A stretch of DNA of 39,389 nucleotides from Anaerolineaceae bacterium (GTDB taxonomy: Bacteria; Chloroflexota; Anaerolineae; Anaerolineales; UBA11579), in assembly GCA_900299355.1 (NCBI GenBank), contig OMJR01000082.1, positions 1 to 39,389 on the forward strand, given 5' to 3'. The position numbers were made by a program, and so were the translations under genes. Positions within the stretch are counted from its first letter, which is position 1; every line of letters starts with the position of its first letter. The notes under the pieces are model-generated. The model made no database searches and was not told the DNA's origin. It saw only the letters and a list, made by a program, of their open reading frames with translations. Shown piece by piece: positions 2,362 through 38,833 of the stretch.

Positions 2362-2792
2362 CACGGAGAATTGAATTGCTGCGAAAACTGTTGATCGCCC
2401 TGGCTTCGATTGGTCTGCTGGATGCGATTTATCTGACCTGGATTAAGCTATCTGGAGCCGAGGCGATGTGCGCCGGGGTAGGGGATTGCTCGGCGGTGAA
2501 CGCCAGCCGCTACTCAGAAATCGCGGGTATCCCGATTGCTGTTTTCGGCGGCGGCGCTTATCTGGTCATGTTGCTGATCCTGATTTACAAAGACCGGGTT
2601 GATTTTCTGCGCGTAAACGGAGCCATGCTACTCGTGGGGATCTCGCTGGCCGGGGTGTTGTATTCGGCATACCTGACCTATATTGAGTTGTATGTCATTC
2701 ACGCAATTTGTCCCTATTGCGTGTTATCTGCAATTGTGTTGACCCTGATGCTGATTGTGTCCATCCTCTATATCCGGGAGGAGTGGGCTTAG
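2358..2792 (+). CDS. Vitamin K epoxide reductase (VKOR) family membrane protein
   Basis: 144-aa ORF with several hydrophobic segments. A loop Cys pair (MCAGVGDC) plus a CPYC motif in the last membrane segment gives the four-Cys VKOR pattern. No ATG is available; TTG 2358 overlaps the moeA stop (TTGA), so the start is uncertain. Confidence 0.8.
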   Translation: MTRRIELLRKLLIALASIGLLDAIYLTWIKLSGAEAMCAGVGDCSAVNASRYSEIAGIPIAVFGGGAYLVMLLILIYKDRVDFLRVNGAMLLVGISLAGVLYSAYLTYIELYVIHAICPYCVLSAIVLTLMLIVSILYIREEWA

Positions 2793-2803
2793 GCCTGCCA
2801 CCG

Positions 2804-3103
2804 ATGCCGCGCGTTCGCTGCCACTACGCCGATTGCGTGTTTCTGGAAGAGGGCTACTGCGCCGCCGCTGCGGTTGAGATTGATCCCGCTGAGGGCTGTC
2901 TGACCTATTCGGCAGCTGGCGAAGTAAGCCGCGACGAAGCCTGGGAAGAAAACCAGGGGTTGGAGGAAGAGTGGGCGGATGCTGGCTATACGGCCGTTGC
3001 CGACGATGAAGACGACATGTGGCTGGAAGACGATTTGCTCAGTGATGATGACGAGGAAGACGATTTCGATCTCGATGAGGATGACTTCGAAGACGATCTG
3101 TAG
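2804..3103 (+). CDS. Small Cys-rich protein (DUF1540-like C-x4-C-x7-C...C-x-T-Y pattern) with a strongly acidic C-terminal tail
   Basis: The ORF track gives 2708-3103. I prefer ATG 2804, after the VKOR stop at 2792. The N-terminus MPRVRCHYADCVFLEEGYCAAAAVEIDPAEGCLTYS matches the DUF1540 cysteine spacing as I remember it. The tail is DDEDDMWLEDDLLSDDDEEDDFDLDEDDFEDDL. No clear SD is present. Confidence 0.5.
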   Translation: MPRVRCHYADCVFLEEGYCAAAAVEIDPAEGCLTYSAAGEVSRDEAWEENQGLEEEWADAGYTAVADDEDDMWLEDDLLSDDDEEDDFDLDEDDFEDDL

Positions 3104-3188
3104 GACCGTATAGACTGGGCCGGCTAGGTTTGTGAAGCAGGCGCAGGCTTCTTAGGCGCTGAGGGGGCGTATATGTATAATCAAGATC

Positions 3189-5081
3189 ATGGACCGTCGT
3201 ACAGAACGCTCAATTAAGAAGGCGCTGGATCTAATTAAAAACGGCCAACACGCCAAGGCCCGCCCGATCCTGACCAACATTCTGAAGCAAGATCCCAATC
3301 AGGCGGAAGCCTGGTTTCTGCTCAGTTATGCCGTCCCAGAGCGTGGACGGCGCATTTATGCGTTGCGCCAGGCGCTCAACGCAAACCCGGACTTCACCCG
3401 GGCTGAGGAACGCCTGAGCAAGTTGACGGGCCAGCCGTCCAGCACGCCATCCCGCCCGCAACAACCCAGTGATCGCCCAGCTGCCCCGGCCTTCATTCCG
3501 CCTGATGAGGACGCGAAAAGCGAAGATCGCGATCCCCAGGGCTTTTCGGACTACGACAAGGGTTGGGTTGATGGCGAAGCCTTTGAAGATGAAGAGCAAG
3601 AACCGGGCAGTGGCCTAAGCCGGACCCTGCTCTGGGTGCTGCTGACGGTCGTTTTGCTGACGGCGATTTACTTCCTGGCCGGTGATGCCATTCGGGCGGT
3701 GTTCTCCGGGGGCGGGGGAAGCGGCGCTCAGGTCACCTCCACCGAAGCGGCGGCCTTCCGTACGCTGCCGCCCACCTGGACGCCGGCCGGGGCGATCAAC
3801 GCCACGCCGGATTTGCAGACCACACCCACACCTACCCAGGAGGGCGCCCCGCCACAGGGCTTTAACCTGGATTTTCCCACCCCAGACGGTGAAGTGCGCG
3901 CTTTGATGGATGAAATCCGCGCCGAGGTACTGGCGGTCCGCGGCCTGACAATTGAAGCCGATGCTGAAGATTATCTGATTACACGCGACCAGGCGGTGCA
4001 GGTGCTTGAGCAGTTGTACTTGACCGAAATTGTCAGCGAAAACATCAGCCGCGAGCAAGACCTGCTGGTTGCTCTTGGGCTGGTGCCGGCGGACTATTTC
4101 CTGGCCGACTACGAAGTTAGCAGCCAAGCGGATCAGTTGGGCGGGTTCTATGTGCCAGCCCTAGATAGTCTGTTCATCATCGGAGAAGACTTCTCCGGTT
4201 TGGCGCCCTTTATCTATGCCCACGAATATGAGCACGCCCTGGCGGATGAGTATTACGATCTCAACAGCCTTCTGACAGAAGATTGCGGCGTGTTTTCGGA
4301 TGCCTGCCGCGCTGCCCGGGCGCTGGGTGAAGGCGATGCGACCTTGCTCAGTCGCCAATGGCTGAATACCTTCGCCAATCCCGAAGTCGTCGAAAAGGTA
4401 GTGCTGGGCTTTTTCAATGATTTGGACGCCATGTTGGTCGCCGATCAACCGCCTCCGCCCTTCATCTCGATGGATGTGGCTTTTCCCTATCAGGAGGGCG
4501 AAGTGTTCGCGGATAGCCTGGTGAGCGCCGGCGGCTGGGACGCAATTGATGCCGCCTATTTAGCTCCGCCTGGCACAACCGAGCAGATTCTGCATCCCGA
4601 TAAGTACCTGGCGGGCGAAGAGGCGCTGCCCATTGAGGTCGTGGACATTTCAACGGCGCTTAGCAGCGAGTGGGAACGCCTGGTGGATGGCCGTTTGGGT
4701 GAGTGGATGACTTATCTGCTATTGTGGCTGGGGCCCAGCGAAGCGGAGACCGTGGCCGACCAGGCGACGGCTGCCGCGGCCGCCGCGGGCTGGGGCAACG
4801 ATGCTTTGCAGAGTTACCAGCGCCCGGATGGAAGCGTGGCCTTCAGCGCCCACTGGGTGTGGGACAGCCCGGCAGACGGCGACGAAATGCTGGCGGCTAT
4901 GCAGAGCCAACTGAGCAATCGTTTTGGTGAACCGATTGCGTCGGTGGGCGGCGGCACTTGCTGGGCGGGCAGCGCGGTGATTTCCTGCCTCTACACCGCA
5001 GAGGGGCAAACCCTCTGGCTGCAGGCTCCAGATACTGAGACCATCGCCTCGATACTGGCCTTGTATTCGCAATTTAACTGA
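3189..5081 (+). CDS. Membrane-anchored hypothetical protein: N-terminal TPR-like helices, low-complexity linker, one TM segment, large C-terminal domain with an HExxH motif
   Basis: 630-aa ORF with an ATG start. The N-terminus is TPR-like (AEAWFLLSYAV...ALRQALNANPDF). The TM segment is LLWVLLTVVLLTAIYFLAG. HEYEH is encoded at 4221-4235 (YAHEYEHALAD). I do not recognise a specific family. Confidence 0.65.
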   Translation: MDRRTERSIKKALDLIKNGQHAKARPILTNILKQDPNQAEAWFLLSYAVPERGRRIYALRQALNANPDFTRAEERLSKLTGQPSSTPSRPQQPSDRPAAPAFIPPDEDAKSEDRDPQGFSDYDKGWVDGEAFEDEEQEPGSGLSRTLLWVLLTVVLLTAIYFLAGDAIRAVFSGGGGSGAQVTSTEAAAFRTLPPTWTPAGAINATPDLQTTPTPTQEGAPPQGFNLDFPTPDGEVRALMDEIRAEVLAVRGLTIEADAEDYLITRDQAVQVLEQLYLTEIVSENISREQDLLVALGLVPADYFLADYEVSSQADQLGGFYVPALDSLFIIGEDFSGLAPFIYAHEYEHALADEYYDLNSLLTEDCGVFSDACRAARALGEGDATLLSRQWLNTFANPEVVEKVVLGFFNDLDAMLVADQPPPPFISMDVAFPYQEGEVFADSLVSAGGWDAIDAAYLAPPGTTEQILHPDKYLAGEEALPIEVVDISTALSSEWERLVDGRLGEWMTYLLLWLGPSEAETVADQATAAAAAAGWGNDALQSYQRPDGSVAFSAHWVWDSPADGDEMLAAMQSQLSNRFGEPIASVGGGTCWAGSAVISCLYTAEGQTLWLQAPDTETIASILALYSQFN

Positions 5082-5133: not shown

Positions 5134-5205
5134 GGCGAGGTAGCTCAGTGGCAGAGCAGGGGACTCATAAGCCCTTGGTCGTGAGTTCGACTCTCACCCT
5201 CGCCA
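5134..5205 (+). tRNA. tRNA with CAU anticodon (Met, or Ile2 if lysidine-modified)
   Basis: A manual cloverleaf fits. Acceptor GGCGAGG/CCTCGCC, D arm GCTC-AGTGGCA-GAGC, anticodon arm GGGGA-CTCATAA-GCCCT (U33, CAU, A37), variable loop TGGTC, T arm GTGAG-TTCGACT-CTCAC, discriminator A. G1-C72 is paired, so this is not an initiator. CCA is not fully encoded (CC then T). Confidence 0.9.
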
Positions 5206-5210
5206 CCTTC

Positions 5211-6872: not shown

Positions 6873-8807
6873 TCAACCGGCTTCTTTGTCTGAATCCACC
6901 TTCAGTTTCATCTGCATTTGTGGGCGTTGAATGCCCTCTGCAATCAGTTGGGCGATACCTTCCGGTTCGCCGGCCTGGGCGAACAGCCACCCCTGAATGT
7001 GGTGGCAGCCAAGCGATTCATAGAACTCAAGTTGGGCCTCGGTTTCCACGCCTTCAGCCACCAACTCTACGCCCAGATTTTCGGCGATCGTCGCGATCCC
7101 GCGTACCACGGCGGCATAGCTGCTTGACGAGGAGATTTGCGGCGCGAACTTCTGGTCGATTTTGAGTGTATCGAATGGGAATTGGGCCAGCTGGCTTAGG
7201 GTTGAGTAGCCGGAGCCTAAATCGTCGACCGCCAGGCGCACGCCCAAATCATGCAAATCATCCAACACGGACAGGATTTTCTCAGTATCGTGGAAGATGA
7301 TTTTTTCGGAGAGTTCCAACTCCAATAGGTGGGCTGGGAAACCAGAGTGCTTTAGGTTCGTGCGGATGCGCTCCACGAAATCGGGGTGATTGATTTCGCG
7401 TTCGGATATGTTGACCGCCAGGCGCACATCTGGCAAGCCCATCGTGCGCCATTCGTTGACCTGGCGCAGGGCTTCCTCCAGCATCCACACCGCCAGGGGC
7501 AGAATCAGGCTGGTTTCTTCCGCGAGCGGAATAAACTGGCTGGGGAGCAATAGGCCCTGGGTGGGGTGCGGCCAGCGGCTGAGCGCCTCAATGCCGACTA
7601 CCTGTCCGCTGGTGGAATCCACTTGCGGCTGGTAGGCCAGGGTCAGCTGCTGGTCCGGGATTGCTTTGCGCAATTGGCTGCCCATCTCCAGGCGTTCCAA
7701 CGCCTGGTTTTGCATGCGCTTGGAATAAAAGCGTAAGTCATTTTTTCCATCGGCTTTGGAGTAATACATGGCGCGGTCTGCTTTTTGGATGAGGCTTTCT
7801 ACATCCTGGCCGTCCTCTGGGTAGAGGCTGATGCCGATGCTGGCGGTGACGAAGGCTTCGGCATTGTCGACGTGAAAGGGTTTGGCCACAGCTTGAATCA
7901 AATTGCGGCCGACCTGCTCAACGCCGGAGACATCCGTGAAGCCCTGCACCACGATGGCGAATTCATCGCCGCCCAACCGGGCAACCGTGTCCACCTTGCG
8001 GATCCCAGCTGCCAGGCGGCTGCCGATGAGCTTCAGCAGCTCGTCGCCTTGCTTGTGCCCGAAGGCGTCATTGACCTTCTTGAAGCCGTCCAAGTCCAGG
8101 AAGAGGACGCCTACCTGTTCGTTGTTGCGGTCGGCGCTGTAAATCGCCTGGGACAAGCGGTCACCCAGCAGGGTGCGATTGGGCAGCCCCGTCAACGGGT
8201 CGTGGGTGGCAAGGCGCTGCAGCTCGGCCTCAGCGCGCTTGCGCTCACTGATATCCCGCACGGAGCTTTGGAAAATGCGCACCCCTTGCAATTCCACCAG
8301 CACGGTGCTGACCTCCACCGGAATGTGACGGCCGTCTTTGTGCATATGGGTGCGCTCGAAGGTCAAGTAGCCTTCTTCTTCTAGCCGCTGAGTAATCTCG
8401 TCGCGGTCGCGGCGGTCGTCGTCAATATTTAGGTCATCGATCTGTGTGCCAATTAGCTCGTCGCGTTCGTAGCCCAGGCGCTGGGCAGCGATTTCGTTGC
8501 AATCCAGGATGCGGCGTGTGGCGGCTTCAATAATGAAAATCGAATCGGAGGCGTTATAAAACAGGCTGCGATACTTGACTTCGCTTTCCTTCAGCGCCTC
8601 GGCTGACTGCTCCTGCTCGGTGGCATAAAGCTCCTGCATCTCGTGCGAGGATATCGCCAGCGACCGTTCCAGCAGGTAGCGGTCCTGGTCGGCCTGGCCG
8701 TAGGTGCGGTCTACTTGCTGCAGGAAAGCCTGCCACTCCTCATCGGTGGGTGCTTTGTCTTGTTCCAGCAGCAGGCGGCGTAGTTGGCGGATAAGGATTT
8801 TATGCAC
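6873..8807 (-). CDS. PAS-GGDEF-EAL signalling protein (putative bifunctional diguanylate cyclase/phosphodiesterase)
   Basis: 644-aa ORF with a GTG start at 8807. It has a PAS block (SIFIIEAATRRILDCNEIAAQRLGY), a GGDEF block (RLGGDEFAIV) and EAL blocks (EALSRW, DDLGSGYS, KIDQKF). Confidence 0.9.
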   Translation of the reverse strand: MHKILIRQLRRLLLEQDKAPTDEEWQAFLQQVDRTYGQADQDRYLLERSLAISSHEMQELYATEQEQSAEALKESEVKYRSLFYNASDSIFIIEAATRRILDCNEIAAQRLGYERDELIGTQIDDLNIDDDRRDRDEITQRLEEEGYLTFERTHMHKDGRHIPVEVSTVLVELQGVRIFQSSVRDISERKRAEAELQRLATHDPLTGLPNRTLLGDRLSQAIYSADRNNEQVGVLFLDLDGFKKVNDAFGHKQGDELLKLIGSRLAAGIRKVDTVARLGGDEFAIVVQGFTDVSGVEQVGRNLIQAVAKPFHVDNAEAFVTASIGISLYPEDGQDVESLIQKADRAMYYSKADGKNDLRFYSKRMQNQALERLEMGSQLRKAIPDQQLTLAYQPQVDSTSGQVVGIEALSRWPHPTQGLLLPSQFIPLAEETSLILPLAVWMLEEALRQVNEWRTMGLPDVRLAVNISEREINHPDFVERIRTNLKHSGFPAHLLELELSEKIIFHDTEKILSVLDDLHDLGVRLAVDDLGSGYSTLSQLAQFPFDTLKIDQKFAPQISSSSSYAAVVRGIATIAENLGVELVAEGVETEAQLEFYESLGCHHIQGWLFAQAGEPEGIAQLIAEGIQRPQMQMKLKVDSDKEAG

Positions 8808-8813
8808 GTGCGG

Positions 8814-9956
8814 CTAGGCTTCCTGGATGGTGGTGAGGGTCATGGTCTGGTTGTGCAGTTCGCAGGTGCCATCCGTGTAGGGCGAAATTTCGCCATACGA
8901 ATAAAAGCCGATTTGCTTCACACCGGGGGGCAGCACTTCCAGGGCGGCCTCCAGCTCTTCCTCGGTGCGCTCGCCGAGCACCAGGCGCGTGCCGACGCAG
9001 CTAATCGCAATGGAGAGGGTCGGCTGGTCTCCGGAGCAGCCGTTCTCGCTGGTCATCAGCGCGGCTTCGTTGGCGCCATTGATAAGGCGGTCGAAATTGG
9101 CTTTCATGAATTGGGCGTAGGAACCGTTGTGGATGTCACCAGCAAAGGTCAGCGAATTGGCTTCTTCATCAATAGACAGAATCGTGCGCACAATGCTCTT
9201 CTCGTCACCCTGGTCGGTGCTCAGCGCTAGCGGAAAGAGTAAGGCGCTGGATGGCAAATCTGCGGCCAGGTCGCCCAGGTACTCTTTGTAGAGGTCCAGG
9301 GCCGGGCGGCCGTCCAACTCGTAGAGCACATTGCCAGCCGCATGCGTTACCTGGCGCTTGGGGCCGAACACATCCCAGCCACCCTTGGAGCCGTGGCCGA
9401 CCCGCACGTGGTCGCCGTAGAAACCCACCGCACACACGTAATCGAGCCCGAGACGCTTGCCGTTGAGTACCCAAGTGCGCTCAAAGCGGTCGCCGTCGCC
9501 GGCCAGGCCGCCGGTGACCACCACCGACGCGGGCAAATGGTCGACCAGGCCGCGCACCAATTCGCTGCCGTTAATACTGGTGCCGTTAGATAGCACAAAG
9601 AGCGCGCGCAGATCGTCGCGGGCCAGGTCGTCAGCCAGGTGTTGGCCGGCATGATAGGATTCGTCGGAGGCGGCGACTTTGGTGCTGGTGGAACGCACTT
9701 CGCTTTTGTCGAAGCGCACAACTGTTACGGACAATGAACTGTCGTTGATATCCGCGCCGTAGATTTCACCCGCGGTTGAGCAGCCGATACAATGCGAATT
9801 GGGGTAGGCGGCCGTCAATTCTTCAATGGCCGCAGCATTGTCAATGTAATCCGGCGAGCCAAATACCAGAACCAGCGTGTCCGGAGAGTCAAGCTCCGGG
9901 AACTGGGCGACTGACCAGCCCGACTTCAGGTGATGAGTAAACGTATCAATTTGCAT
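8814..9956 (-). CDS. FIST-domain sensor protein (FIST_N + FIST_C; NosP-like architecture)
   Basis: The ORF track extends to 10016. I prefer ATG 9956 (MQIDTFTHH...), which has GAGGGA 4 nt upstream. The C-terminal GFYSYGEISP is typical of FIST_C. The stop is 6 nt before the GGDEF-EAL start. Confidence 0.8.
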   Translation of the reverse strand: MQIDTFTHHLKSGWSVAQFPELDSPDTLVLVFGSPDYIDNAAAIEELTAAYPNSHCIGCSTAGEIYGADINDSSLSVTVVRFDKSEVRSTSTKVAASDESYHAGQHLADDLARDDLRALFVLSNGTSINGSELVRGLVDHLPASVVVTGGLAGDGDRFERTWVLNGKRLGLDYVCAVGFYGDHVRVGHGSKGGWDVFGPKRQVTHAAGNVLYELDGRPALDLYKEYLGDLAADLPSSALLFPLALSTDQGDEKSIVRTILSIDEEANSLTFAGDIHNGSYAQFMKANFDRLINGANEAALMTSENGCSGDQPTLSIAISCVGTRLVLGERTEEELEAALEVLPPGVKQIGFYSYGEISPYTDGTCELHNQTMTLTTIQEA

Positions 9957-10088
9957 GATTCCCTCGTTACCTCGTACAGAAAAGCCATGATTTGCCCATA
10001 TGGTAAAGAAGTTCATACATTATACAACCGCACAGAAGTACTAACAGAGTTGTTAACCTATCAATTACTGTAGCAGGAGACAGGATAC

Positions 10089-13082: not shown

Positions 13083-13104
13083 AAGCCCGCTTCCGAGCGG
13101 GCTT
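13083..13104. terminator. Bidirectional hairpin terminator between convergent E1 and response-regulator genes
   Basis: AAGCCCGCT-TCCG-AGCGGGCTT (9-bp stem) followed by ATTTTTTG on the + strand and preceded by an A-rich run. It overlaps the regulator stop codon (13103-13105). Confidence 0.7.
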
Positions 13105-14284
13105 ATTTTTTGCTTTTCTTGGCGGGGGCGGTCAGTTCGGCCGGAAGGTGGGCGATATCGATTTGCGGCTCATCGCAAAACAGCATAGCGCGCTCAATCA
13201 CATTGCGCAGTTCGCGGATGTTGCCGGGCCAATCATGCTTGTTGAGGTCGTCCAAGGCTTTGGGGGTTACGCCTTGAATGTTCAGGCCCTTGCGCGGATT
13301 GAAATAATTGATGAAGAAGGCCACCAACTCGGGAATATCTTCTTTGCGCTTTTTGAGCGAGGGCAAGTCTAACTGCAGCACATTGAGACGGAAGTAGAGG
13401 TCCTCGCGGAATTCCTCGTTCTTAATCATTTCGGGCAGGTTCCGGTTGGAGGCGGCCACCACCTGTACGTCGACCTTAATCTCATTGTTGCCGCCCATGC
13501 GCACGAAGGAACGCTCCTCTAGTGCGCGCAGCAGCTTGGCTTGCATATCCAGCGGCATGGAGGCAATCTCGTCCAGGAAGAGCACGCCATCGTTAGCGTA
13601 CTCAATGCGGCCGACGCGGCGCTTTTCGGCGCCGGTGAAGGCGCCCGGCTCGTAGCCGAAGAGTTCGGACTCAATCATCGTGGCGGGTACCGCAGCGCAG
13701 TTGATAGCCACGAAGGGCTTATCGGCGCGCGGGCCCATGCTGTGAATGGCCTTGGCGACGATTTCCTTGCCGGTGCCGGTCTCGCCGGTGATGATGACGG
13801 AGGTGTTGGTCTGGGCGGCGCGCTCGGCCTGACGCATCAGGTCGGCCATAGCTTTGGTCTTGCCGAGCACATAATCTGTATCGCGTTCGGCGCGCAGCTG
13901 CTGCAGCTCACGCTTCATGGCTACCTGGCTGCCGGCGCGCTCAATCGAGGCTTCCAGGCGCTCGAACTTGATGGGTTTCTGCAGGAAGTCGTGGGCGCCG
14001 TTCTGCATGGCCTCAACCGCCATCTCGATATCGCCGTGGGCGGTAATCATAATGATGGGCGGGCGGTTCATGTCCGCCGCGGTTTCTTCCACGAAGTTGG
14101 TGCCCAGGCCATCCGGCAGCTGCACATCCAGCAACACGATATCGGCGCTATCGGTGGCTAGCACCTTGCGGGCTGACTTCAAGTCGCCAGCCTCCAGCAC
14201 CTCAAAGTCCTTCTTATTGAGGAACTTGGCGATGTTTTCGCGGGCGTTCTGTTCGTCGTCAACGATAAGGATGCTCAGGCTCAT
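13103..14284 (-). CDS. Sigma-54-dependent response regulator (REC + AAA+ bEBP) without a C-terminal HTH domain
   Basis: 393 aa. The REC domain reads ILIVDDE...VLLDVQLPDG. The AAA+ domain has Walker A GETGTGKE, the GAFTGA loop (YEPGAFTGAEKR) and Walker B VLFLDEI. The protein ends 24 residues after ELRNVIERAMLF. Its ATG overlaps the kinase stop (ATGA). Confidence 0.9.
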   Translation of the reverse strand: MSLSILIVDDEQNARENIAKFLNKKDFEVLEAGDLKSARKVLATDSADIVLLDVQLPDGLGTNFVEETAADMNRPPIIMITAHGDIEMAVEAMQNGAHDFLQKPIKFERLEASIERAGSQVAMKRELQQLRAERDTDYVLGKTKAMADLMRQAERAAQTNTSVIITGETGTGKEIVAKAIHSMGPRADKPFVAINCAAVPATMIESELFGYEPGAFTGAEKRRVGRIEYANDGVLFLDEIASMPLDMQAKLLRALEERSFVRMGGNNEIKVDVQVVAASNRNLPEMIKNEEFREDLYFRLNVLQLDLPSLKKRKEDIPELVAFFINYFNPRKGLNIQGVTPKALDDLNKHDWPGNIRELRNVIERAMLFCDEPQIDIAHLPAELTAPAKKSKK

Positions 14285-16251
14285 GCGGGGTCAGGGTCCT
14301 TGTCGGGGTCGGGTGGGGCGGCGGGCAGCTTGATGCGGAAGAGCGTGCCGCCGGGGAAAGATTGCAGGCTGATGTCGCCTTTGTGGGTCATGATGAGGCT
14401 GCGGGTAATCGCCAGGCCCAGGCCGGTGCCCTCTTCTTTCTTGGTGGTGAAGAAGGCGTCGAAGACCACTTCGCGCAAATCCGGCGGGATACCCGGGCCG
14501 GTATCGGACAAATTGATTTCAACCCAGTCTTTGCCATCCTCGCTGATGGGCTTAATCTTGATGGCGATGACGCCGCCATCCTGGTCGTCCATGGCTTGCA
14601 GCGAGTTGGTAATCAGGTTGGTGAAGACTTGGTCCAGCGCGCGGCGGTCACCCATGATGTCGGGCGTGTCCTTGGCGACCTGGATGTGGCTGTCAATGTT
14701 GTTGCGGCCCATGCGCGGCTTCCAGCGCTCCAACTGTTGGCGGCAGAATTCGCCGATATCCATGCGCTCGGGGCTGTAATCGAGGGTGCGTGAAAAGTTC
14801 TGCAGACCCTTGAGGCGATGCTCCAGGCGGTCGCAATCTTCCATCAGCTTGGCCAGCTGTTCCTGAATCGGATCGTCGTCCGCAAAGTCGGTTTGCAGCA
14901 ATTGCAGGCCGGTGCTCATGTTGTTGATGGGGTTGCGCATCTCGTGGGCTACCCGGGCGATCACTTCGCCCAGTTCGGCGCGCTGGCGCAGCTGCTGGCT
15001 GCGAATATGGAAGTCTTCATGCTCGCTCAGGTCGGTAATTAATACCGCCAATTGAGACACGGCTTCGCCCTTGGCGATGGAGGCCACGCGCACATGCGCC
15101 AGGAAGTCGCTGCCGTCGCGGTGGTGCAAATGAATTTCGCCGACGTCCACCAGCTTGTTGTGCTGGGCGACATCTTCCAGGGTGGAAAGCAGCGAACGGG
15201 TGCTAATCAGGATTTCGTTGGCGTGGCGGCCCTGCGCTTCGCGGGCGGTGTAGCCGAGCATGCTTTCGGCGGCTGGATTGATGTCGGTTAGCTGGAGTTG
15301 ATTGTCAAAGAAAATCAAACCGTCCTGCACGTTCTCCTGCAGGCGCTCATTGAGCTGGGCTTGCTCGGCCAGGCGCGCGAACTCGGCTTCCAGGTGGCGG
15401 TTCATCTCGCGGTACATGCCGGCGGTCATGGCCGAGGCGGCCAGGATTTGCGCCAGGGTCAGGATTTCGGCGGGCGGCCCGGCGGCCGCATCGGCGGCCA
15501 CCAGCAAGCCGCGGCTGGGCTGGGTGAGGTCCAGCGGGCTGCTGGCCAGGTAGACCAGTTTGTTGGCGTGGGCTAATTGGTGTAGCGGCGCTTCGACGGC
15601 CTTGCCAGCCTGCCACAGCTTGGGCGTGCGCAGGTGGCCCAGGTCGCGCTCGGCTAGGCGGGTGGGCCAATCCAGGCCGCTGCCGTATACGCTTTCCAGA
15701 CTGAGTTGCCCGGCTTCGCCTTCCACATAGAGCGCTAAATGGGCCGCGCCGGTGAGCAGGTTGCCAGCCTGCAGGATGCGCCGGTAGGTGGAGGCCAGTT
15801 CCTTTTGCTGGGCGGCCAGGTTGAGCATGTGCAGGGCCTCCCAGCGTTCCTTCTGCAGCTTTTGCTGGACGCGCTGCTGCTCGATGCTGGCTGCCGGTTG
15901 AATGCTGAGCGCGCTCCAGCCCTCGCCGCCGTTCAGCGGGCTGACGGCCAGGCGCACGGCCATCGTGCTGCTGTTGCGCTTGACCAATTCCACGGGCAAA
16001 TCCTCAGCAGCGTGGCTGAGCTTACGAATCGCAAAACCCGGCAGCAAGGTGCCGAGTTGGAGTTCGCTTAATTCCTGGCGGGTGTAGGCGCTGAGCTGGG
16101 TCGCCTGGGCGTTGCCCAGCAGCACCCGGCCGCTACGCCCTTCAACCAGCAGGGTAGCGTGGGGCAGCAGGTCCAGCAGGCCTTCCAGTTCCTCCACGCC
16201 CTGGTTGCGTTTCTTGAAGAGCGCCAGGTCGCCAATGTTGGATAGAGCCAT
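14281..16251 (-). CDS. Cytoplasmic PAS/GAF-containing sensor histidine kinase (NtrB-like)
   Basis: 656 aa with no TM segment. It has PAS-like blocks, the H-box VAHEMRNPINN, an N-box (NLITNSLQA) and the G-boxes DTGPGI and GTGLGLAI. Confidence 0.9.
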   Translation of the reverse strand: MALSNIGDLALFKKRNQGVEELEGLLDLLPHATLLVEGRSGRVLLGNAQATQLSAYTRQELSELQLGTLLPGFAIRKLSHAAEDLPVELVKRNSSTMAVRLAVSPLNGGEGWSALSIQPAASIEQQRVQQKLQKERWEALHMLNLAAQQKELASTYRRILQAGNLLTGAAHLALYVEGEAGQLSLESVYGSGLDWPTRLAERDLGHLRTPKLWQAGKAVEAPLHQLAHANKLVYLASSPLDLTQPSRGLLVAADAAAGPPAEILTLAQILAASAMTAGMYREMNRHLEAEFARLAEQAQLNERLQENVQDGLIFFDNQLQLTDINPAAESMLGYTAREAQGRHANEILISTRSLLSTLEDVAQHNKLVDVGEIHLHHRDGSDFLAHVRVASIAKGEAVSQLAVLITDLSEHEDFHIRSQQLRQRAELGEVIARVAHEMRNPINNMSTGLQLLQTDFADDDPIQEQLAKLMEDCDRLEHRLKGLQNFSRTLDYSPERMDIGEFCRQQLERWKPRMGRNNIDSHIQVAKDTPDIMGDRRALDQVFTNLITNSLQAMDDQDGGVIAIKIKPISEDGKDWVEINLSDTGPGIPPDLREVVFDAFFTTKKEEGTGLGLAITRSLIMTHKGDISLQSFPGGTLFRIKLPAAPPDPDKDPDPA

Positions 16252-16254
16252 AAA

Positions 16255-17667
16255 TTAGTTTGCGGTCGCCTTGCGTAGGTGGGCCGGCAGAATGCCCTCC
16301 ATATTACGGTATTTGGCCACGGTGCGCCGCGCAATCTTGTAGCCCTCTTTGGCCAGCAGCTTGGCTAGCTTGGTGTCGCTGAGCGGCTTCTGCTCCGGTT
16401 CGTCCTTGATGATTTCTTTCAGCGCCGTGCGGATGTGCAGGCTGCGGTCGAAGAATTGGGAGAGCGGCACAATCTTATTGTTGGGCAGCTGCACCGATTT
16501 ACCGGAGACGGCGCGCGAAATGGTCGATTCATGCACGCCCAGTTCGTCGGCCAGGCTGGAGCGGGTGAGCGGCTTGATGTGGGCGTTGCCCGCCATGATG
16601 TAGTCGCGCTGTACGACGGCCAGGATTTGCATCAGACGTACAATTGTGTGATTGCGCTGGGCCAGGCATTTAATCAGCAGGGAGGCTTGCTCCAAGTCAA
16701 TTTTCCACTGCTCAGCCTTGTCCCCTGGCGCTTCCTTGAGCGCCTCCTGGAAGAGCGGGTTGACGCGCAGCAGCCCGCGCAGCGGCCAGGTAACCTCGAC
16801 CACCAGGCGGCCACTATCGGTACCTTGCTGCTCGCGGATAATCAGGTCGGGCCGCTGGTAGGTGGCGGGTGCCTCGTTGGTGGCGGTGCGCTGGTTGCCC
16901 CAGTAAGCGCGCGCCGGATAGGGATTGAGATTGCTGGTGATGAAATCGGCAATCTCTTCGGCGACCTTTTTGCTGGTGCCCAGCAATTGGGCTAATTCAC
17001 CGTAATGGCGCTTGCTGAGAAAGGCCATGCCTTCCTGGATGGTGCGCGCGCACAGTTCGGAATCGGGAGCTTCGTCGGCCAGTACTTCCAATTGGGTCAG
17101 CAGCGCCTGGGTGGGGTTGAGCGCGCCGACGCCGATGGGGTCGGCGTGGCGGATGAGGTCGGTGATGGATTCCACCGTGGTGACCGGCACCATGCTGTAG
17201 CGCGCCTCGGCTTGCAGGTCGGCGGTCAACAGGCCGTCCTCGTTGAGGCTGGTCAGCAGGCGGGCGGCGATTTCGAGTTCGTTGGGCTCCAGGTCGGGCG
17301 CAATCTGGCGCAGCACATAGCTGGGCAGGTCTTCGGTATCCGCGTTGGGAATCTCTTCGGAGAGGCCCTGGCCGCTGCCAGCCGAATAGCTGGAGTCGGA
17401 AGGCGCCACAAACACCAACGGTTCCTCGTCCAAACCGGAGGCCGAATTGCATGTGGGGCAGTAGGCGCCGGGGCGCAGGCTGCGTCCGCAGCCGGGACAG
17501 TGACGGCCTTCGACCAGTTCCAGGGCGGGGTTCTCGGCCAGGGCGGCTTCGATTTCCTGGTTCAGTTCCTGGGAATTCAAGCCCAGCAAGCTCATCGTCT
17601 GTGCCAGGTGGGCTGTCGCTTGGGGGCGTTGGGATTGGCTCTGGTAGTAACCTTGCTGTAAGGCCAT
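16255..17667 (-). CDS. rpoN: RNA polymerase sigma-54 factor
   Basis: 470 aa with a Gln-rich region I and a C-terminal HTH. The RpoN box ARRTVAKYR is present (GYKIARRTVAKYRNMEGILP). AAGGAG lies 6 nt upstream of the ATG. The stop is 3 nt before the kinase ATG. Confidence 0.92.
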   Translation of the reverse strand: MALQQGYYQSQSQRPQATAHLAQTMSLLGLNSQELNQEIEAALAENPALELVEGRHCPGCGRSLRPGAYCPTCNSASGLDEEPLVFVAPSDSSYSAGSGQGLSEEIPNADTEDLPSYVLRQIAPDLEPNELEIAARLLTSLNEDGLLTADLQAEARYSMVPVTTVESITDLIRHADPIGVGALNPTQALLTQLEVLADEAPDSELCARTIQEGMAFLSKRHYGELAQLLGTSKKVAEEIADFITSNLNPYPARAYWGNQRTATNEAPATYQRPDLIIREQQGTDSGRLVVEVTWPLRGLLRVNPLFQEALKEAPGDKAEQWKIDLEQASLLIKCLAQRNHTIVRLMQILAVVQRDYIMAGNAHIKPLTRSSLADELGVHESTISRAVSGKSVQLPNNKIVPLSQFFDRSLHIRTALKEIIKDEPEQKPLSDTKLAKLLAKEGYKIARRTVAKYRNMEGILPAHLRKATAN

Positions 17668-17687
17668 GGCGGCTCCTTAGTGGGGCG

Positions 17688-17727
17688 ATTATAGGGATAC
17701 ATTCACTATGGTGCAAGTTCTATGCCA
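17688..17727 (-). promoter_or_regulatory. Overlapping promoter signatures upstream of rpoN: sigma-54 -24/-12 (TGGCAT-N5-TTGCA) and sigma-70 (TTGCAC-N17-TATAAT)
   Basis: The minus strand reads CCTGGCATAGAACTTGCACCATAGTGAATGTATCCCTATAATCGCCCCACTAAGGAGCCGCCATG. The -24/-12 element is at 17712-17727, the -35 at 17711-17716 and the -10 at 17688-17693. Confidence 0.5.
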
Positions 17728-17754: not shown

Positions 17755-19134
17755 ATGACGATGCAAGAACAATACCTGACTGTGGTGGGCGGCGGCCTGG
17801 CCGGCAGCGAAGCCGCCTGGCAAGCGGCCGAACGCGGCCTGTCTGTGCGCCTGTACGAGATGCGCCCCAAGCTGGAAACCGGCGCGCACGTGACCGGCGA
17901 CTTGGCCGAATTGGTGTGCTCCAATTCGCTGGGCTCGGACCTGCCCGACCGCGCCTCGGGCTTGCTGAAGAACGAGTTGCGCCGGATGGTCTCGCTGCTG
18001 GTGCGCCTAGCCGAGGAGACCGCCGTGCCCGCCGGTGGGGCGCTGGCAGTGGACCGCGAGGGCTTTGCCGCCGCGGTAACCCGGGAACTGGAGACACACC
18101 CCCGCATTGAGATTATTCGTGAGGAGATGCCCAACATCCCCGATGGCCTGGCCGTGATTGCTTCCGGACCGCTGACCTCGTCCAAATTGTCGCAAGCGAT
18201 AGCCGCCCTCAGCGGTGAGCAGCACCTCTACTTTTTTGATGCGATTTCGCCGATTGTCAGCCTCGAATCGGTGGACATGGATATCGCCTACCGCGCTTCG
18301 CGCTATGACCGCGGCGAGGAAGAGCAGGGCGATTACATCAATTGCCCGATGACCAAGGATGAATACGAAACCTTTGTAAATGCCTTGCTGGAGGCCGAGC
18401 GCATTGAGCTAAAGTCCTTTGAGCGCGAACTGGAGCAGGGGGTGCGCGCCGGCGCGCATACCTTCTTCGAGGGCTGCCTGCCGGTCGAAATCATCGCCGG
18501 GCGCGGTTTCGACTCGCTGGCCTACGGCCCCATGCGCCCGGTGGGCTTGATTGACCCGCGTAACGGCAAGCGGCCTTATGCGGTGGTGCAGCTACGCCAG
18601 GATAATTTGGCTGGCACGCTGTACAACCTGGTCGGCTTCCAGACCAACCTAACTTTTCCCGAGCAGCGCCGGGTGCTGCGGCTGATTCCCGGGCTGGCGA
18701 ACGCGCGCTTTGAGCGTTACGGCCAGATGCACCGCAACACCTTTATTCATGCGCCCAAGCTGCTGCGGCCCACGCTACAGTTCCACGAGCGGGATGGCCT
18801 GTTCTTTGCGGGTCAAATTACCGGGGTGGAGGGCTATGTGAGCAACATGGCGACTGGCCTGTTGGCGGGCCTGAACGCCGCTCGCATGGCGGCTGGTGAG
18901 GCTCCGCTGGAGCTTCCCGGCACGACCATGCTGGGCGCGCTATGCCAATACGTGACCCACGCCGATGAGGCCGATTTCCAGCCGATGAAAGCCAACTTTG
19001 GCATTATGCCGCCGCTACAAACGGATAAGAAGCTGGGCCGCCGCCAACGGGCGGCCGCCTACGCCGAGCGCGCTCTGGCCGACCTGGATGCCTATCTGGC
19101 TGAACAGGCCGTTTTGACCCCGGTTACCGCGTAA
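17755..19134 (+). CDS. trmFO: Methylenetetrahydrofolate--tRNA-(uracil54-C5)-methyltransferase TrmFO
   Basis: 459 aa. The N-terminal FAD fold reads [31 protein letters not shown], followed by CSNSLG and later GQITGVEGY blocks, colinear with TrmFO/Gid. Confidence 0.92.
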
Positions 19135-35506: not shown

Positions 35507-35687
35507 GTCATTTTGATGGAGCGCTGAATTCGCCACGCGAATTCGAGCGACGAGGAATTCCTCAGGCCACAATACGTTCCGGCAAGCCTGATAGAGGGAG
35601 AAGGGTAGTAAGAATTCCTCGTCGGGCCTCGCTCCGCTTCGCCCTCGCTCGGAATGACAAGCGGGGTGGAATGACAAACGAGCGAGC
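35507..35687. repeat. Composite inverted-repeat element C (same family) plus an extra partial terminus
   Basis: The left arm is GTCATTTTGATGGAGCGCTGAATTCGCCACGCGAATTCGAGCGACGAGGAATTCC (35507-35561). The right arm is AGAATTCCTCGTCGGGCCTCGCTCCGCTTCGCCCTCGCTCGGAATGACA (35611-35659). An extra GGAATGACAAACGAGCGAGCG sits at 35668-35688, next to the Mo-hydroxylase stop. Confidence 0.8.
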
Positions 35688-35688
35688 G

Positions 35689-38037
35689 TTATTTCGCCTT
35701 GTGCTCCTCCACCAACTCCCACAAGCGGCGCGGGCTGAGCGGAATCTCGCGGATCTCAAAGCCTTCCAGCCCCAGCGCATCTTCGATGGCTTGTGCGAAG
35801 AGCGGGCCAACCGGGATGGCGCCCGCCTCGCCGGCGCCCTTGGTGCCCAGCGGATTGAGCGGGGAGGGCGTAACTGTGTGGGCGGTATCCATGCGGGGCA
35901 CATCCAGCGCGGTGGGCAGCAGGAAATCCATAAAGGACGCGTTGGTGATCTGGCCCATCTCGTCGAAAACCAGTTCTTCGTAAAAAGCGTTGCCGAGTCC
36001 CTGGGCGACGCCGCCGTGGATCTGGCCGTCCAGGATCAGCGGGTTGATCACTTCGCCGCAATCGTGCACCACGGCGTACTTTTTGATGTCGATCATCATC
36101 GTCTCGGGGTCGACTTCCACAATCATCGCGTGCACGCCGCTGGCGGTAGCGCCCATCTCGGGGCCGAAGTAATCGGTGGCTTCCAGGCCGGGTTCGGTGC
36201 CGGGCTTGACGGCGCCACGCATCGGGTTGGCACGCTGGGCCAGTTCGCCCAGGGGAATGGCGGTATCCGGGTTGCCCAGGATTTGCACATGGCCATCCAC
36301 CAATTCGAGCTGGTCTTGACTCACTTCGCCTTCGAACTCCTCGATGGCTTTATCCAGAATCTTCTGACGCACGCGTTTGGCAGCGGCATGGATGGCGTTG
36401 CCGGCCACCACCGCGCCACGGCTGGCGAAGGTGCCCACGCCCCAATGGAACTGGTCGGTGTCGCCGGTGACCAAATCGATTTGGTCTACTGGAACGCCCA
36501 GTTGCTCGGCCACGATTTGGGCATAGCTGGTGTAATGACCCTGGCCCTGGGTGCCGATGCCGGTGGCCACACTCACGCGGCCGTTGGCCTGCACCTGGAT
36601 TCGGGCGCCTTCGTAGGGGCCGATGCCGGTGCCCTCTACATAGCAAACCAGGCCGAGACCGAGGCGCTTGCCTTCTTTCTCGGCTTGGGGTTTGCGGGTC
36701 CTGTAGAAGTTTTGGTAATCAATCAGTTCCAACGCCTTGTCTAGAATCGGCCCATAGTTGCCGCTGTCATAGGTCAGTTCGCTGAAATCCTGATAAATAA
36801 TCTGGTGCTTGTGGGGGAAATCATCGGGCGGGATGAAATTCTTGCGCCGGATTTCAGCCTTGTCCATGCCCAACTCTTTGGCGGCCACGTCCAGCAAGCG
36901 TTCCATAACAAAGACGCCGTGCTGGCGGCCCGCGCCGCGATAGGGGCTGGTGATGGGCTTGTTGGTAAAGACCGCGGTGAATTCGGTGCTGTAGTTAGGC
37001 ACCCGGTACATGCCCAGCAGGGTGCATTGGGTGTTGATGGGAATGGTCAGTCCGTAAGGGTCGTAGGCGCCGTTGTCATGCCAGAAAGTGTCTTTGACGC
37101 CCAGGATGGTGCCATCCTGCTTGAGCGCGATTTCAGAGACATGGGTCTGGCCGCGCTCCTGAGTGGTGGCGTAGAAGTTCTCGTTGCGGTCCTCAATCCA
37201 CTTGACCGGCCGGTTGAGGCCCATCGCAATCCAGGGCAGCAGCATTTCCTCAGGGTAGAACATCAGAATTTTGGGCCCGAAGCCGCCGCCGATAAAGGGC
37301 GCAATCAGGCGCACCTGGTGCTCGCTGAGGCCCAGCATGCCAGCGATGCCGTTGCGGATGATGACCGGCGCCTGGGTGGTGTCCCACATGGTCAGCTTGC
37401 CGGCCTTGGCGTCCCACTCGGCCACGATGCCGCGGTTCTCCATAGCGGCCGCCGTGCCGCGGTCGTAGACGAACTCGCGCTCGATGACCACATCGGCCTG
37501 CTGCCTGGCTTTGGCGTAATCGCCCTTGTGCTGCACGACGTGCGCGGCCAAGTTGCTATCCAGGTCGTCATGGATGAGGGTGGCGCGGTCCTCCATCGCC
37601 TTCTTGGGGTCGATGTGGACTGGCAGCGGTTCGTAATCCACCATGATTAGGTTGGCGGCATCTTCGGCGATGTAGCGATTTTCGGCGACCACGCAGGCCA
37701 CGATTTCGCCGACATGGCGCACTTTGTCCTTGGCGATAATGGGATGCAGGCGTTCGTGAAAGACGGCGCCCTCGATGGGCGGGGTGCCCACATTGAGCAC
37801 GCCGGTGCGCCAGTAATCGCCCAGGTCCTCAGCGGTGTACAACGCTTCAACGCCCTCCAGCGCGCGGGCCTCGGTGGCATCCACTGACTTAATCCGCGCG
37901 TGGGCATAGGGGCTGCGCACGAAGGCGATGTGTAGCATGCCGGGCAGGTTGACATCGTCGACAAAGAGCGCCTGCCCAGTGAGCAGCTTAGGGTCTTCGT
38001 TGCGCTTGATGCGCTCGCCGAAATAACGCGTCGCCAT
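35689..38037 (-). CDS. Xanthine dehydrogenase/aldehyde oxidase family molybdopterin-binding large subunit (CoxL/XdhB-like)
   Basis: I prefer ATG 38037 (MATRYFGERIKRNEDPKLLTGQALFVDDV...), with AAGGA 8 nt upstream and 4 nt after the cyclase stop. The ORF track's extension to 38160 overlaps the cyclase gene. The family block APFIGGGFGPK is present. Confidence 0.9.
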   Translation of the reverse strand: MATRYFGERIKRNEDPKLLTGQALFVDDVNLPGMLHIAFVRSPYAHARIKSVDATEARALEGVEALYTAEDLGDYWRTGVLNVGTPPIEGAVFHERLHPIIAKDKVRHVGEIVACVVAENRYIAEDAANLIMVDYEPLPVHIDPKKAMEDRATLIHDDLDSNLAAHVVQHKGDYAKARQQADVVIEREFVYDRGTAAAMENRGIVAEWDAKAGKLTMWDTTQAPVIIRNGIAGMLGLSEHQVRLIAPFIGGGFGPKILMFYPEEMLLPWIAMGLNRPVKWIEDRNENFYATTQERGQTHVSEIALKQDGTILGVKDTFWHDNGAYDPYGLTIPINTQCTLLGMYRVPNYSTEFTAVFTNKPITSPYRGAGRQHGVFVMERLLDVAAKELGMDKAEIRRKNFIPPDDFPHKHQIIYQDFSELTYDSGNYGPILDKALELIDYQNFYRTRKPQAEKEGKRLGLGLVCYVEGTGIGPYEGARIQVQANGRVSVATGIGTQGQGHYTSYAQIVAEQLGVPVDQIDLVTGDTDQFHWGVGTFASRGAVVAGNAIHAAAKRVRQKILDKAIEEFEGEVSQDQLELVDGHVQILGNPDTAIPLGELAQRANPMRGAVKPGTEPGLEATDYFGPEMGATASGVHAMIVEVDPETMMIDIKKYAVVHDCGEVINPLILDGQIHGGVAQGLGNAFYEELVFDEMGQITNASFMDFLLPTALDVPRMDTAHTVTPSPLNPLGTKGAGEAGAIPVGPLFAQAIEDALGLEGFEIREIPLSPRRLWELVEEHKAK

Positions 38038-38041
38038 AAGC

Positions 38042-38833
38042 TTATCCTTCGGTGAAGGCGACCGCGCGGCAGAAGGCCGCTTCGCCGCCTTTGAACTTCC
38101 AGGGGAAAGCGCCCAGCACGATGCGCTTGTTGTGCAGCTCGGGGTTGCCGATTTCGCCACCCAGGTTCTCCACGTGGAAGCAGTCGTGGGGGAAGAGCGC
38201 GTTGTGGGTCAATTGGTAGGCCTCGGGCGGGAACATCTCGTCCACCTTCTGGCTGCCGCCGAACTTGTCCTCGACCTGCTTGCGCACCTTGGCCCAGTGC
38301 TCCAGGCCACCCTTACCGAGGAAGCGGCCGATGGGCAGGTTCATCGGGTGGTCGGTGGAAATCATGTCCACGCCCCACAGGTGAATCTTCTTATCCAGCA
38401 GCCATTCGCAGATGCTGTGGTGCGGACCCGGATGGCGGTGGATGTACTTTTCCTCATCGCCGTCGGGGGCCAGGAAGGTGTATTTATGCCAGCCGGTGTT
38501 GATGAAGAGGATATCGCCATTCTTAATTTCGGCGCGCTCCTCCAGCATTTCAGGGGTAAAGACTTCCAGCTCGTCCATCGCGTCGCTGATATCCACGATG
38601 ACACCTTCGCCGTAAAGCCAATCCAGCGGCAGTTGCTCGATAGTCTTGCCGTTGGTCACAAAATGACGCGGGGCATCCAGGTGGGTGCCCATGTGATTGG
38701 AGGTTTGAATATATTGGGCGTTGACGCCATGCTCAGATTTGCGCTTCAAATACTTAACTTCAAAGGGCGGGTAGAAGGGCCAGAACGAACAATCCTGGTT
38801 AAGGTCTTGGGACAGGTCGTGGATTTTGTACAT
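38042..38833 (-). CDS. Cyclase-family protein (arylformamidase / isatin-hydrolase-like, PF04199-type)
   Basis: 263 aa with the metal-site signature NHMGTHLDAPRHF and the later DMISTDHP. AAGGAG lies 8 nt upstream of the ATG. Confidence 0.87.
   Translation of the reverse strand: MYKIHDLSQDLNQDCSFWPFYPPFEVKYLKRKSEHGVNAQYIQTSNHMGTHLDAPRHFVTNGKTIEQLPLDWLYGEGVIVDISDAMDELEVFTPEMLEERAEIKNGDILFINTGWHKYTFLAPDGDEEKYIHRHPGPHHSICEWLLDKKIHLWGVDMISTDHPMNLPIGRFLGKGGLEHWAKVRKQVEDKFGGSQKVDEMFPPEAYQLTHNALFPHDCFHVENLGGEIGNPELHNKRIVLGAFPWKFKGGEAAFCRAVAFTEG

Follow-up and report, generated by a model that had tools for sequence, protein, structure and literature searches.

Introduction

The closest working analogue of the locus described here can be regarded as the CtcB-CtcC-sigma-54 system of Chlamydia, in which a soluble PAS-type kinase lies beside a REC-AAA+ activator of ~386 aa that lacks a DNA-binding domain (DBD), with the activator CtcC alone driving the whole sigma-54 regulon, itself tied to envelope remodelling and development (PMC7482065). 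Our locus is a cassette of three genes, encoding sigma-54 (RpoN), a histidine kinase, and a response regulator of the sigma-54 activator type, located in a 39,389 nt stretch of DNA (hereafter the window) from an Anaerolineaceae bacterium (Anaerolineales; UBA11579; GCA_900299355.1, contig OMJR01000082.1). Annotation pipelines label both systems AtoS/AtoC-like, however in Chlamydia rpoN is encoded elsewhere, with an approximately constant transcript level (PMC7482065), whereas rpoN of the Anaerolineae is the first gene of the predicted operon and is preceded by a sigma-54-type promoter. FlgS and FlgR of Helicobacter and Campylobacter are similarly related, with FlgR an enhancer-independent, NtrC-type activator without a DBD that is served by a cytoplasmic kinase (PMC3162934), and precedents for activators of this kind are found in both reports (PMC3162934, PMC7482065). 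The FlgS-FlgR system, in contrast, governs a flagellar regulon and is unlinked to rpoN, and no flagellar genes lie near the Anaerolineae cassette.

The linkage of a sigma-54 gene to its own activator has also been described, with Xanthomonas rpoN2 transcribed as part of one operon together with fleQ, which encodes a bacterial enhancer-binding protein (bEBP) (PMC7970052), and Cereibacter possessing dedicated RpoN-bEBP pairs such as RpoN3-AprX (PMC11999139). As predicted for the Anaerolineae cassette, the sigma-54 genes of these systems are co-transcribed or functionally paired with their own activators, and the adjacency of rpoN and an activator gene in a Stenotrophomonas locus of our sample (L044) resembles that of rpoN2 and fleQ. 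Unlike the Anaerolineae cassette, however, the Xanthomonas and Cereibacter systems involve additional, secondary copies of rpoN located in flagellar or niche gene clusters, with activators that have kept the helix-turn-helix (HTH), and no kinase gene lies between the two.

Superimposed sigma-54 and sigma-70 promoters, at which two holoenzymes compete for one site, are known at glmY and glmZ of the Enterobacteriaceae (PMC3045617). These promoters drive small RNAs and need the enhancer-binding GlrR, whilst the dual promoter of the Anaerolineae is predicted to drive the operon of the sigma factor itself and, unlike glmY/glmZ, comes in two registers, the -35 being formed by the -12 element in one and by the -24 element in the other. 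Ahead of rpoN, promoters of the sigma-54 type have been predicted or reported in Bacilli, Clostridia, Planctomycetia, Proteobacteria, Geobacter, and Dokdonia, with this 2025 regulon survey giving 0 occurrences for Chloroflexota and describing no linked kinase-activator pair (PMC12316311), and a 2011 survey places sigma-54 “only in some Chloroflexi” (PMC3162934).

Incidental co-mentions aside, no description of the present combination, or of sigma-54 in Anaerolineae, was found in the open-access literature. Extracytoplasmic function (ECF) sigma factors are likewise co-encoded with a signal-gating partner, the anti-sigma factor, and are often autoregulated. An earlier interpretation of this DNA from its letters alone (the sequence-only reading) had drawn this comparison, which holds only as an analogy: ECF pairs work by release of a sequestered sigma factor whilst the Anaerolineae cassette, which contains no anti-sigma factor, would work by ATP-driven activation of bound holoenzyme. 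The same reading had considered the arrangement undescribed as a unit, which is too strong in light of the Xanthomonas (PMC7970052) and Cereibacter (PMC11999139) pairs, and of a bEBP gene adjoining rpoN in 4 of the 69 non-Chloroflexi loci sampled here (among the matches listed). What stands is that rpoN-activator operons, DBD-less activators, predicted rpoN autoregulation, and overlapping promoters each have a precedent, and that their combination appears to be new.

Results

Arrangement and conservation of the cassette

The evidence presented below makes it probable, at roughly 70% in our estimation, that the three genes form an autoregulated sigma-54 operon conserved in Anaerolineae-type Chloroflexota. 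All three lie on the minus strand of the window, with rpoN (470 aa) at 16255-17667, the kinase gene (656 aa) at 14281-16251, and the regulator gene (393 aa) at 13103-14284. The rpoN stop codon is separated by 3 nt from the kinase ATG (...AAC TAA TTT ATG GCT...), and the kinase stop and regulator start share the ATGA of positions 14281-14284, overlapping by 4 nt (GCATGAGCC). No terminator-like hairpin with a T-tract was found at either cassette junction in the window, and a GC-rich hairpin at 13083-13104 (AAGCCCGC-(N)-GCGGGCTT) overlaps the regulator stop codon, forming a putative terminator common to the convergent E1 dehydrogenase gene. The three genes appear translationally coupled, with one predicted promoter region ahead and one predicted terminator behind, and we infer their co-transcription from the spacing, the single promoter region, and the single terminator.

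RpoN homologues 52–93% identical to that of the window were found in Chloroflexi and Anaerolineales metagenome-assembled genomes (MAGs) and in metagenomes. Loci from the genome collection were gathered by full RpoN alignment with a universal RpoN-box peptide as the chosen pattern (80 loci listed, 11 of them Chloroflexi), and metagenome loci by alignment of the clade-specific RpoN N-terminus. The order rpoN-kinase-regulator is present in the genome loci L001-L009 and in 36 of 36 Anaerolineae-type loci reaching far enough (at least 3.6 kb after rpoN); in the latter, intergenic distances range from -7 to +49 nt, and 4-nt start/stop overlaps are frequent. This order is kept across lineages in which RpoN is just 45% identical and the flanking genes differ, and its presence at each of the related loci inspected puts the arrangement far beyond chance.

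The same gene order was also observed in an actinobacterial MAG (Coriobacteriaceae; L045:7905-12267), where the regulator has retained a Fis-type HTH and rpoN is preceded by a generic TGGTAT-N5-TTGCT. This cassette may be either independent or transferred.

The promoter region of rpoN

The spacer between rpoN and trmFO contains a sigma-54-type -24/-12 element (TGGCATAGAACTTGCA, 17712-17727, minus strand), composed of TGGCAT (17727-17722), five intervening nucleotides, and TTGCA (17716-17712), with the GG and GC doublets 10 nt apart on the rpoN strand. The element lies 60 nt ahead of the rpoN ATG, giving a predicted start near 17701, and inspection of the sequence reveals a Shine-Dalgarno (SD) GGAG at 17673-17676 on the same strand. 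This is the sole exact TGGYAY-N5-TTGCW match in the window, which on its own is unremarkable, as 20% of shuffles contain one; an equivalent element, however, precedes rpoN in all nine genome loci and in 83 of the 83 loci with sufficient upstream sequence (77 unique), at 37–157 nt (median 57) from the ATG. Information content at these promoters is 1.2–2.4 bits over positions -26 to -11 and no more than 0.3 bits at -56 to -27, and since conservation is confined to the former, it points to selection on a predicted sigma-54 binding site rather than residual similarity. No conserved upstream element was found at -56 to -27 among the 77 unique loci, which fits enhancer independence of the activator.

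A clade-specific sigma-54 position weight matrix (PWM), trained on the 77 rpoN-upstream sites and with scores of at least 14 counted, assigns the window rpoN promoter a score of 31.0, making it the sole such site in the window. No comparable match was found upstream of rpoN in other phyla and Chloroflexia, the matrix being clade-trained. A weak sigma-54-like site (AGGTATTGTTCTTGCA, PWM 13.6) was observed at 17762-17777 on the minus strand, 50 nt upstream of the main site, where it coincides with the initial codons of the oppositely oriented trmFO, and is probably due to chance.

The -24/-12 element also appears to overlap a sigma-70-type promoter, with a TATAAT -10 hexamer at 17688-17693 (minus strand) located 17 nt downstream of TTGCAC. 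The resulting TTGCAC-N17-TATAAT has a perfect -10, with its backing coming from comparative spacing statistics. In 54 of the 77 unique loci, a TATAAT or TATACT hexamer begins at +33 or +34 relative to the T of TGGCA (TTGCAN-N17/16-TATAMT, the -12 element forming the -35), and a hexamer lies at +22 in a further 14 (nTGGCA-N17-TATAAT, the -24 element forming the -35), so that a -10 hexamer at 16/17-nt spacing occurs in 68 of 77 overall, against a background of 0.5% per offset. In the window, the TTGCA of the -24/-12 element is thus predicted to double as the -35 of a sigma-70-type promoter.

The activator lacks a DNA-binding domain

The regulator has the architecture REC-AAA+-lid, as assigned from Pfam (Response_reg PF00072; Sigma54_activat PF00158, E 9e-71; AAA_lid_14) and from motifs, with a receiver phospho-acceptor D53 within IVLLDVQL, Walker A GETGTGKE at 167, Walker B VLFLDE at 234, REDLYFRL (arginine finger) at 293, and a GAFTGA loop at residue 214 (positions 13628-13645). 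Its closest solved structure is the REC+AAA+ form of Aquifex NtrC1 (1NY5), with an E of 1e-91 over residues 4-380 of the query. A Fis-type HTH was not detected in the regulator, with no HTH_8 match in Pfam and the NtrC model covered over 1-385 of 463 only, and the C-terminus (...HLPAELTAPAKKSKK*) ends 8–10 residues past the lid domain.

The orthologous regulators of the 36 loci are 388–410 aa in length, with one start-codon outlier of 445 aa, and the HTH is absent in 36 of 36. Likewise, the eight regulators inspected in L001-L009 stop straight after the lid, and the best 120 database homologues are 385–403 aa at full length (two shorter partial matches aside), with HTH_8 in none. Fis-type HTH domains are present, however, at the C-termini of the rpoN-adjacent bEBPs of L010, L043, L044, and L045, from distant Anaerolineales (L010), Planctomycetia, Stenotrophomonas, and Coriobacteriaceae loci. 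The loss of the HTH in the Anaerolineae regulators may be independent of the FlgR/CtcC lineage.

With regard to the sequence-only reading, the coordinates, identities, and junctions it had given for the three minus-strand genes are exact, as judged by open reading frames (ORFs), Pfam, and the motifs ARRTVAKYR, AHEMRNP, GTGLGLAI, and GAFTGA. The absence of a DBD from the activator extends, as described above, from the window to the orthologues and best homologues, and the order of the genes, which it had proposed to examine in relatives, is kept with operon-like spacing. Its broader proposal of a self-contained, signal-gated module is partly supported overall, and is strengthened by the conserved sigma-54 promoter before rpoN, which it had not described.

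RpoN and its kinase

The assignment of rpoN is supported by its ORF, by Pfam matches which all exceed their cut-offs, comprising the activator-interacting region I (PF00309 Sigma54_AID, E 1.4e-8, 34.9 bits, cut-off 23.8), the core-binding domain (PF04963 Sigma54_CBD, 87.3 bits), and the DNA-binding domain (PF04552 Sigma54_DBD, 120.8 bits), and by the RpoN box ARRTVAKYR at residues 446-454 (positions 16306-16332). Inserted just after region I is a CPxC-N9-CPxC motif (residues 57-73; 17449-17499, minus strand), whose cysteines C57, C60, C70, and C73 are conserved without exception in the 14 Anaerolineae homologues aligned. An AlphaFold2 model built from the 14-sequence alignment, with a predicted local distance difference test (pLDDT) score of 69 overall, shows short beta strands, at low confidence, in the cysteine region (pLDDT 55–66). 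The insertion is probably a zinc ribbon replacing the usual acidic region II. RpoN of the window type appears to be the main RpoN of the lineage.

The kinase belongs to the soluble histidine kinases, with the arrangement PAS-GAF-PAS-HisKA-HATPase_c assigned from Pfam and a family profile. Pfam matches comprise PAS, HisKA (PF00512), and HATPase_c (PF02518), with an H-box VAHEMRNP containing H436 and a G-box GTGLGLAI. For the N-terminal 300 aa, a profile of 40 orthologues matches PDB PAS domains at residues ~28-134 (E 9e-16), GAF models match 10 of the 40 orthologous N-termini, and no hydrophobic segment was found in the kinase (maximum KD19 1.34). Owing to these three observations, the protein is predicted to be a soluble cytoplasmic PAS-GAF-PAS sensor.

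A second histidine kinase, membrane-bound, multi-GAF, and 803 aa in length, was observed between the regulator gene and the convergent E1 dehydrogenase gene of L090 (L090:14580-16991). This locus belongs to the nearest metagenome clade of the window (L081-L092), with an RpoN 67% identical, and its 803-aa kinase is absent from the window.

Candidate sigma-54 targets in relatives

Scanning 1.7 Mb with the PWM (both strands of ~850 kb of loci) recovered the training sites together with 24 others, all on the rpoN strand, with these extra sites preceding a gene of 107 aa (16 of 16), a gene here termed X, and ftsZ. The 107-aa gene encodes a protein with two transmembrane segments and no Pfam match, and lies just after the regulator gene in 16 loci (L002, L004-L007, L009, L098, L108, L121, L124, L130, L132, L141, L149, L151, and L155; for example L141:8553-8931), with the site 41–63 nt before its start codon in all 16. 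Read-through RNA preceding this gene would fold into a hairpin of -17 to -31 kcal/mol in 15 of the 15 loci analysed, in which an anti-SD at approximately -10 to +1 of the predicted sigma-54 start pairs with the SD, whilst a transcript starting at +1 loses the 5' arm of the hairpin. The sequences of the stems vary between loci with the pairing kept, and a like “insulator” logic has been described at several sigma-54 promoters, that of E. coli glnK among them (bioRxiv 10.1101/086108).

Gene X (~450 aa), followed by ftsZ, was found 2 kb downstream in four loci, with sites before both genes. Four ftsZ loci fetched independently via FtsZ homologues also carry sites before X and before ftsZ (4 of 4), and apart from the rpoN promoter of L162 these 4 x 21 kb contain no other site; the cassette lies 3–6 kb upstream in two of the four, and not within 10 kb in the other two. 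Both promoters are consequently present in 8 of 8 X-ftsZ loci (L096, L104, L128, L143, and L161-L164; for example L143:14672-17344 and L164:8607-11206). The promoter of ftsZ falls within the final codons of X, which encode the motif GDGTx[IL]A. Beneath the promoter, the Ala codon is GCA in 8 of 8, the Ile/Leu codon is NTT in 8 of 8, and the Gly codon is GGC in 7 of 8, with an adjacent Gly codon variable; as synonymous positions follow the promoter consensus, constraint would appear to act at the DNA level. X itself has no Pfam match at E ≤0.1 and no PDB sequence match at E ≤1. Small membrane ORFs and a TPR protein of 1250–2000 aa lie downstream of ftsZ, along with a homologue of the 107-aa gene in the four independently fetched loci.

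Within the window, one-mismatch sigma-54 matches show no excess (6, versus 5.0 in shuffles), and neither the 107-aa protein nor X nor FtsZ has a homologue there by tblastn. No second sigma-54 site was found within reach in the closest relatives L081-L092, where the regulator gene of L090 is followed by a kinase gene rather than a small membrane protein gene. Since the same promoter type precedes the 107-aa gene, X, and ftsZ in relatives, cell division or envelope remodelling is the likely predicted output of the cassette, for the window organism by homology only.

Other features of the window

The cassette is surrounded by trmFO, the E1 dehydrogenase gene, a peptidase gene, and other housekeeping genes, and does not lie in a flagellar cluster. 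The trmFO gene is divergent from rpoN across a spacer of 87 nt, and keeps this position in several relatives. That the cassette belongs to an island which is mobile or was acquired horizontally was considered and rejected, given the even GC content of the region, the housekeeping character of the neighbouring genes, and the synteny of trmFO in those relatives.

Searches with Rfam and ARAGORN identified tRNA-Met (5134-5207) as the only RNA gene of the window. It follows a region (2362-5081) in which moeA is succeeded by 827 nt of lower GC without an ORF of at least 150 aa, and then by a 630-aa ORF with no Pfam match. At 6873-10016 on the minus strand, the gene of a FIST-domain protein (400 aa) is found immediately upstream of that of a PAS-GGDEF-EAL protein (644 aa), 6 nt apart, and the two may form a cyclic di-GMP signalling pair. 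Additionally, long ORFs overlap on opposite strands at 35671-38160, with 357 and 281 aa on the plus strand and 823 aa on the minus strand.

Discussion

The arrangement described here suggests the following mechanism for an autoregulated sigma-54 operon. Basal expression would be provided by the housekeeping sigma-A holoenzyme, with sigma-54 holoenzyme, bound at its own promoter as a closed complex, competing with the overlapping sigma-70 promoter and capping this basal level. Upon perceiving its signal, the cytoplasmic kinase would phosphorylate D53 of the regulator, and the phosphorylated activator would oligomerise into an AAA+ ring. Lacking an HTH, the ring would work from solution, in the manner of Helicobacter FlgR or Chlamydia CtcC, and would open all of the cell's sigma-54 closed complexes, that of its own operon included. 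Positive feedback acting on the sigma factor, sensor, and activator together could then give a switch-like response, and would raise the concentration of the activator, as an untethered activator requires.

Several points weigh against this interpretation. Co-transcription, the start sites, and dependence upon sigma-54 are all predicted from sequence. The predicted sigma-70 promoter of the window went uncalled in a generic scan, since TTGCAC agrees with TTGACA at just 3 of 6 positions, leaving a -35 that is weak by the E. coli consensus. Furthermore, the RpoN of the window scores 254.9 bits against the NCBIfam curated equivalog TIGR02395, under the cut-off of 277.35, and would on this basis be a divergent sigma-54. 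Finally, the window contains no sigma-54 target besides the operon itself (PWM of at least 14).

Of the alternatives, the one that survives best, although we consider it rather unlikely, is that the -24/-12 element serves negative autoregulation only, with a dead-end closed complex blocking the sigma-70 promoter and so setting the level of sigma-54. In proteobacteria, sites of this sort have been reported to mediate negative autoregulation of rpoN, and the coincidence of the sigma-70 -35 with the -12 (54/77) or -24 (14/77) element would render the two holoenzymes mutually exclusive. An activator without an HTH, however, cannot tell closed complexes apart, and being co-encoded should fire its own promoter too. 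The rpoN element also matches the PWM as well as the sites at predicted targets do (31.0, compared with 14–31), and it lies about as far from the start codon (median 57 nt) as the target promoters do (53–63 nt). Moreover, negative autoregulation and activation by sigma-54 are not mutually exclusive modes.

It is less probable still that the cassette is not self-contained, with further HTH-bearing bEBPs, and perhaps a second rpoN, elsewhere in the genome, the regulator being one of several inputs and its linkage to rpoN simply inherited. Such an arrangement would be in keeping with the distant Anaerolineales locus L010, where an RpoN 37% identical is encoded beside an HTH-bearing bEBP, and with Herpetosiphon, which has one sigma-54 and two enhancer-binding proteins (PMC3162934 supplement). 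No other bEBP or rpoN was found in the 39-kb window, however, nor a second in 604 kb of cassette-flanking DNA from 90 loci of relatives, a sample of flanks which speaks only against bEBP-rich genomes and is compatible with a handful. A dedicated pairing is instead indicated by the promoter, with its autoregulatory character, and by an HTH lost throughout. That the three genes are neighbours by descent, separately expressed from internal promoters without forming an operon, is very improbable given the tight or overlapping spacing in 36 of 36 loci despite divergent RpoN proteins and flanks, and the lack of a terminator-like hairpin with a T-tract at either junction of the window.

Building upon the autoregulated operon, it is conceivable, if doubtful at present, that in filamentous Anaerolineae the cassette alone acts as a bistable master switch, governing a small regulon of sigma-54 with ftsZ and its cluster at the core. 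The regulon would then comprise ftsZ, gene X, the small membrane proteins, and the giant TPR protein, with one cytoplasmic kinase setting the time of division or filament septation by way of one untethered activator and the self-amplifying operon, the overlapping sigma-70/sigma-54 promoter acting as the toggle, and the anti-Shine-Dalgarno hairpins keeping target genes silent on read-through transcripts.

The divergence of these proteins also bears on how they are annotated. All 14 of the NCBI-named RpoN homologues among the top matches are deposited as “hypothetical protein”, probably because they fall under the TIGR02395 cut-off, and pipelines name the HTH-less regulators “DNA-binding NtrC family”, “AtoC”, or “Fis family”. 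Together, the shortfall against TIGR02395, the uninformative names, and the misnamed activators mean that surveys may miscount the sigma-54 of this phylum, which may be under-counted in the Chloroflexota.

Sigma-54 biology has been worked out mainly in Proteobacteria, Firmicutes, and a few pathogens, with Chloroflexota barely mentioned. A self-activating operon kept across a class would offer a natural test case for how an untethered activator reaches its working concentration, and for competition between sigma-54 and sigma-70. The predicted control of ftsZ, in turn, would tie sigma-54 to cell division in an abundant but poorly cultured group of wastewater, sediment, and subsurface bacteria.

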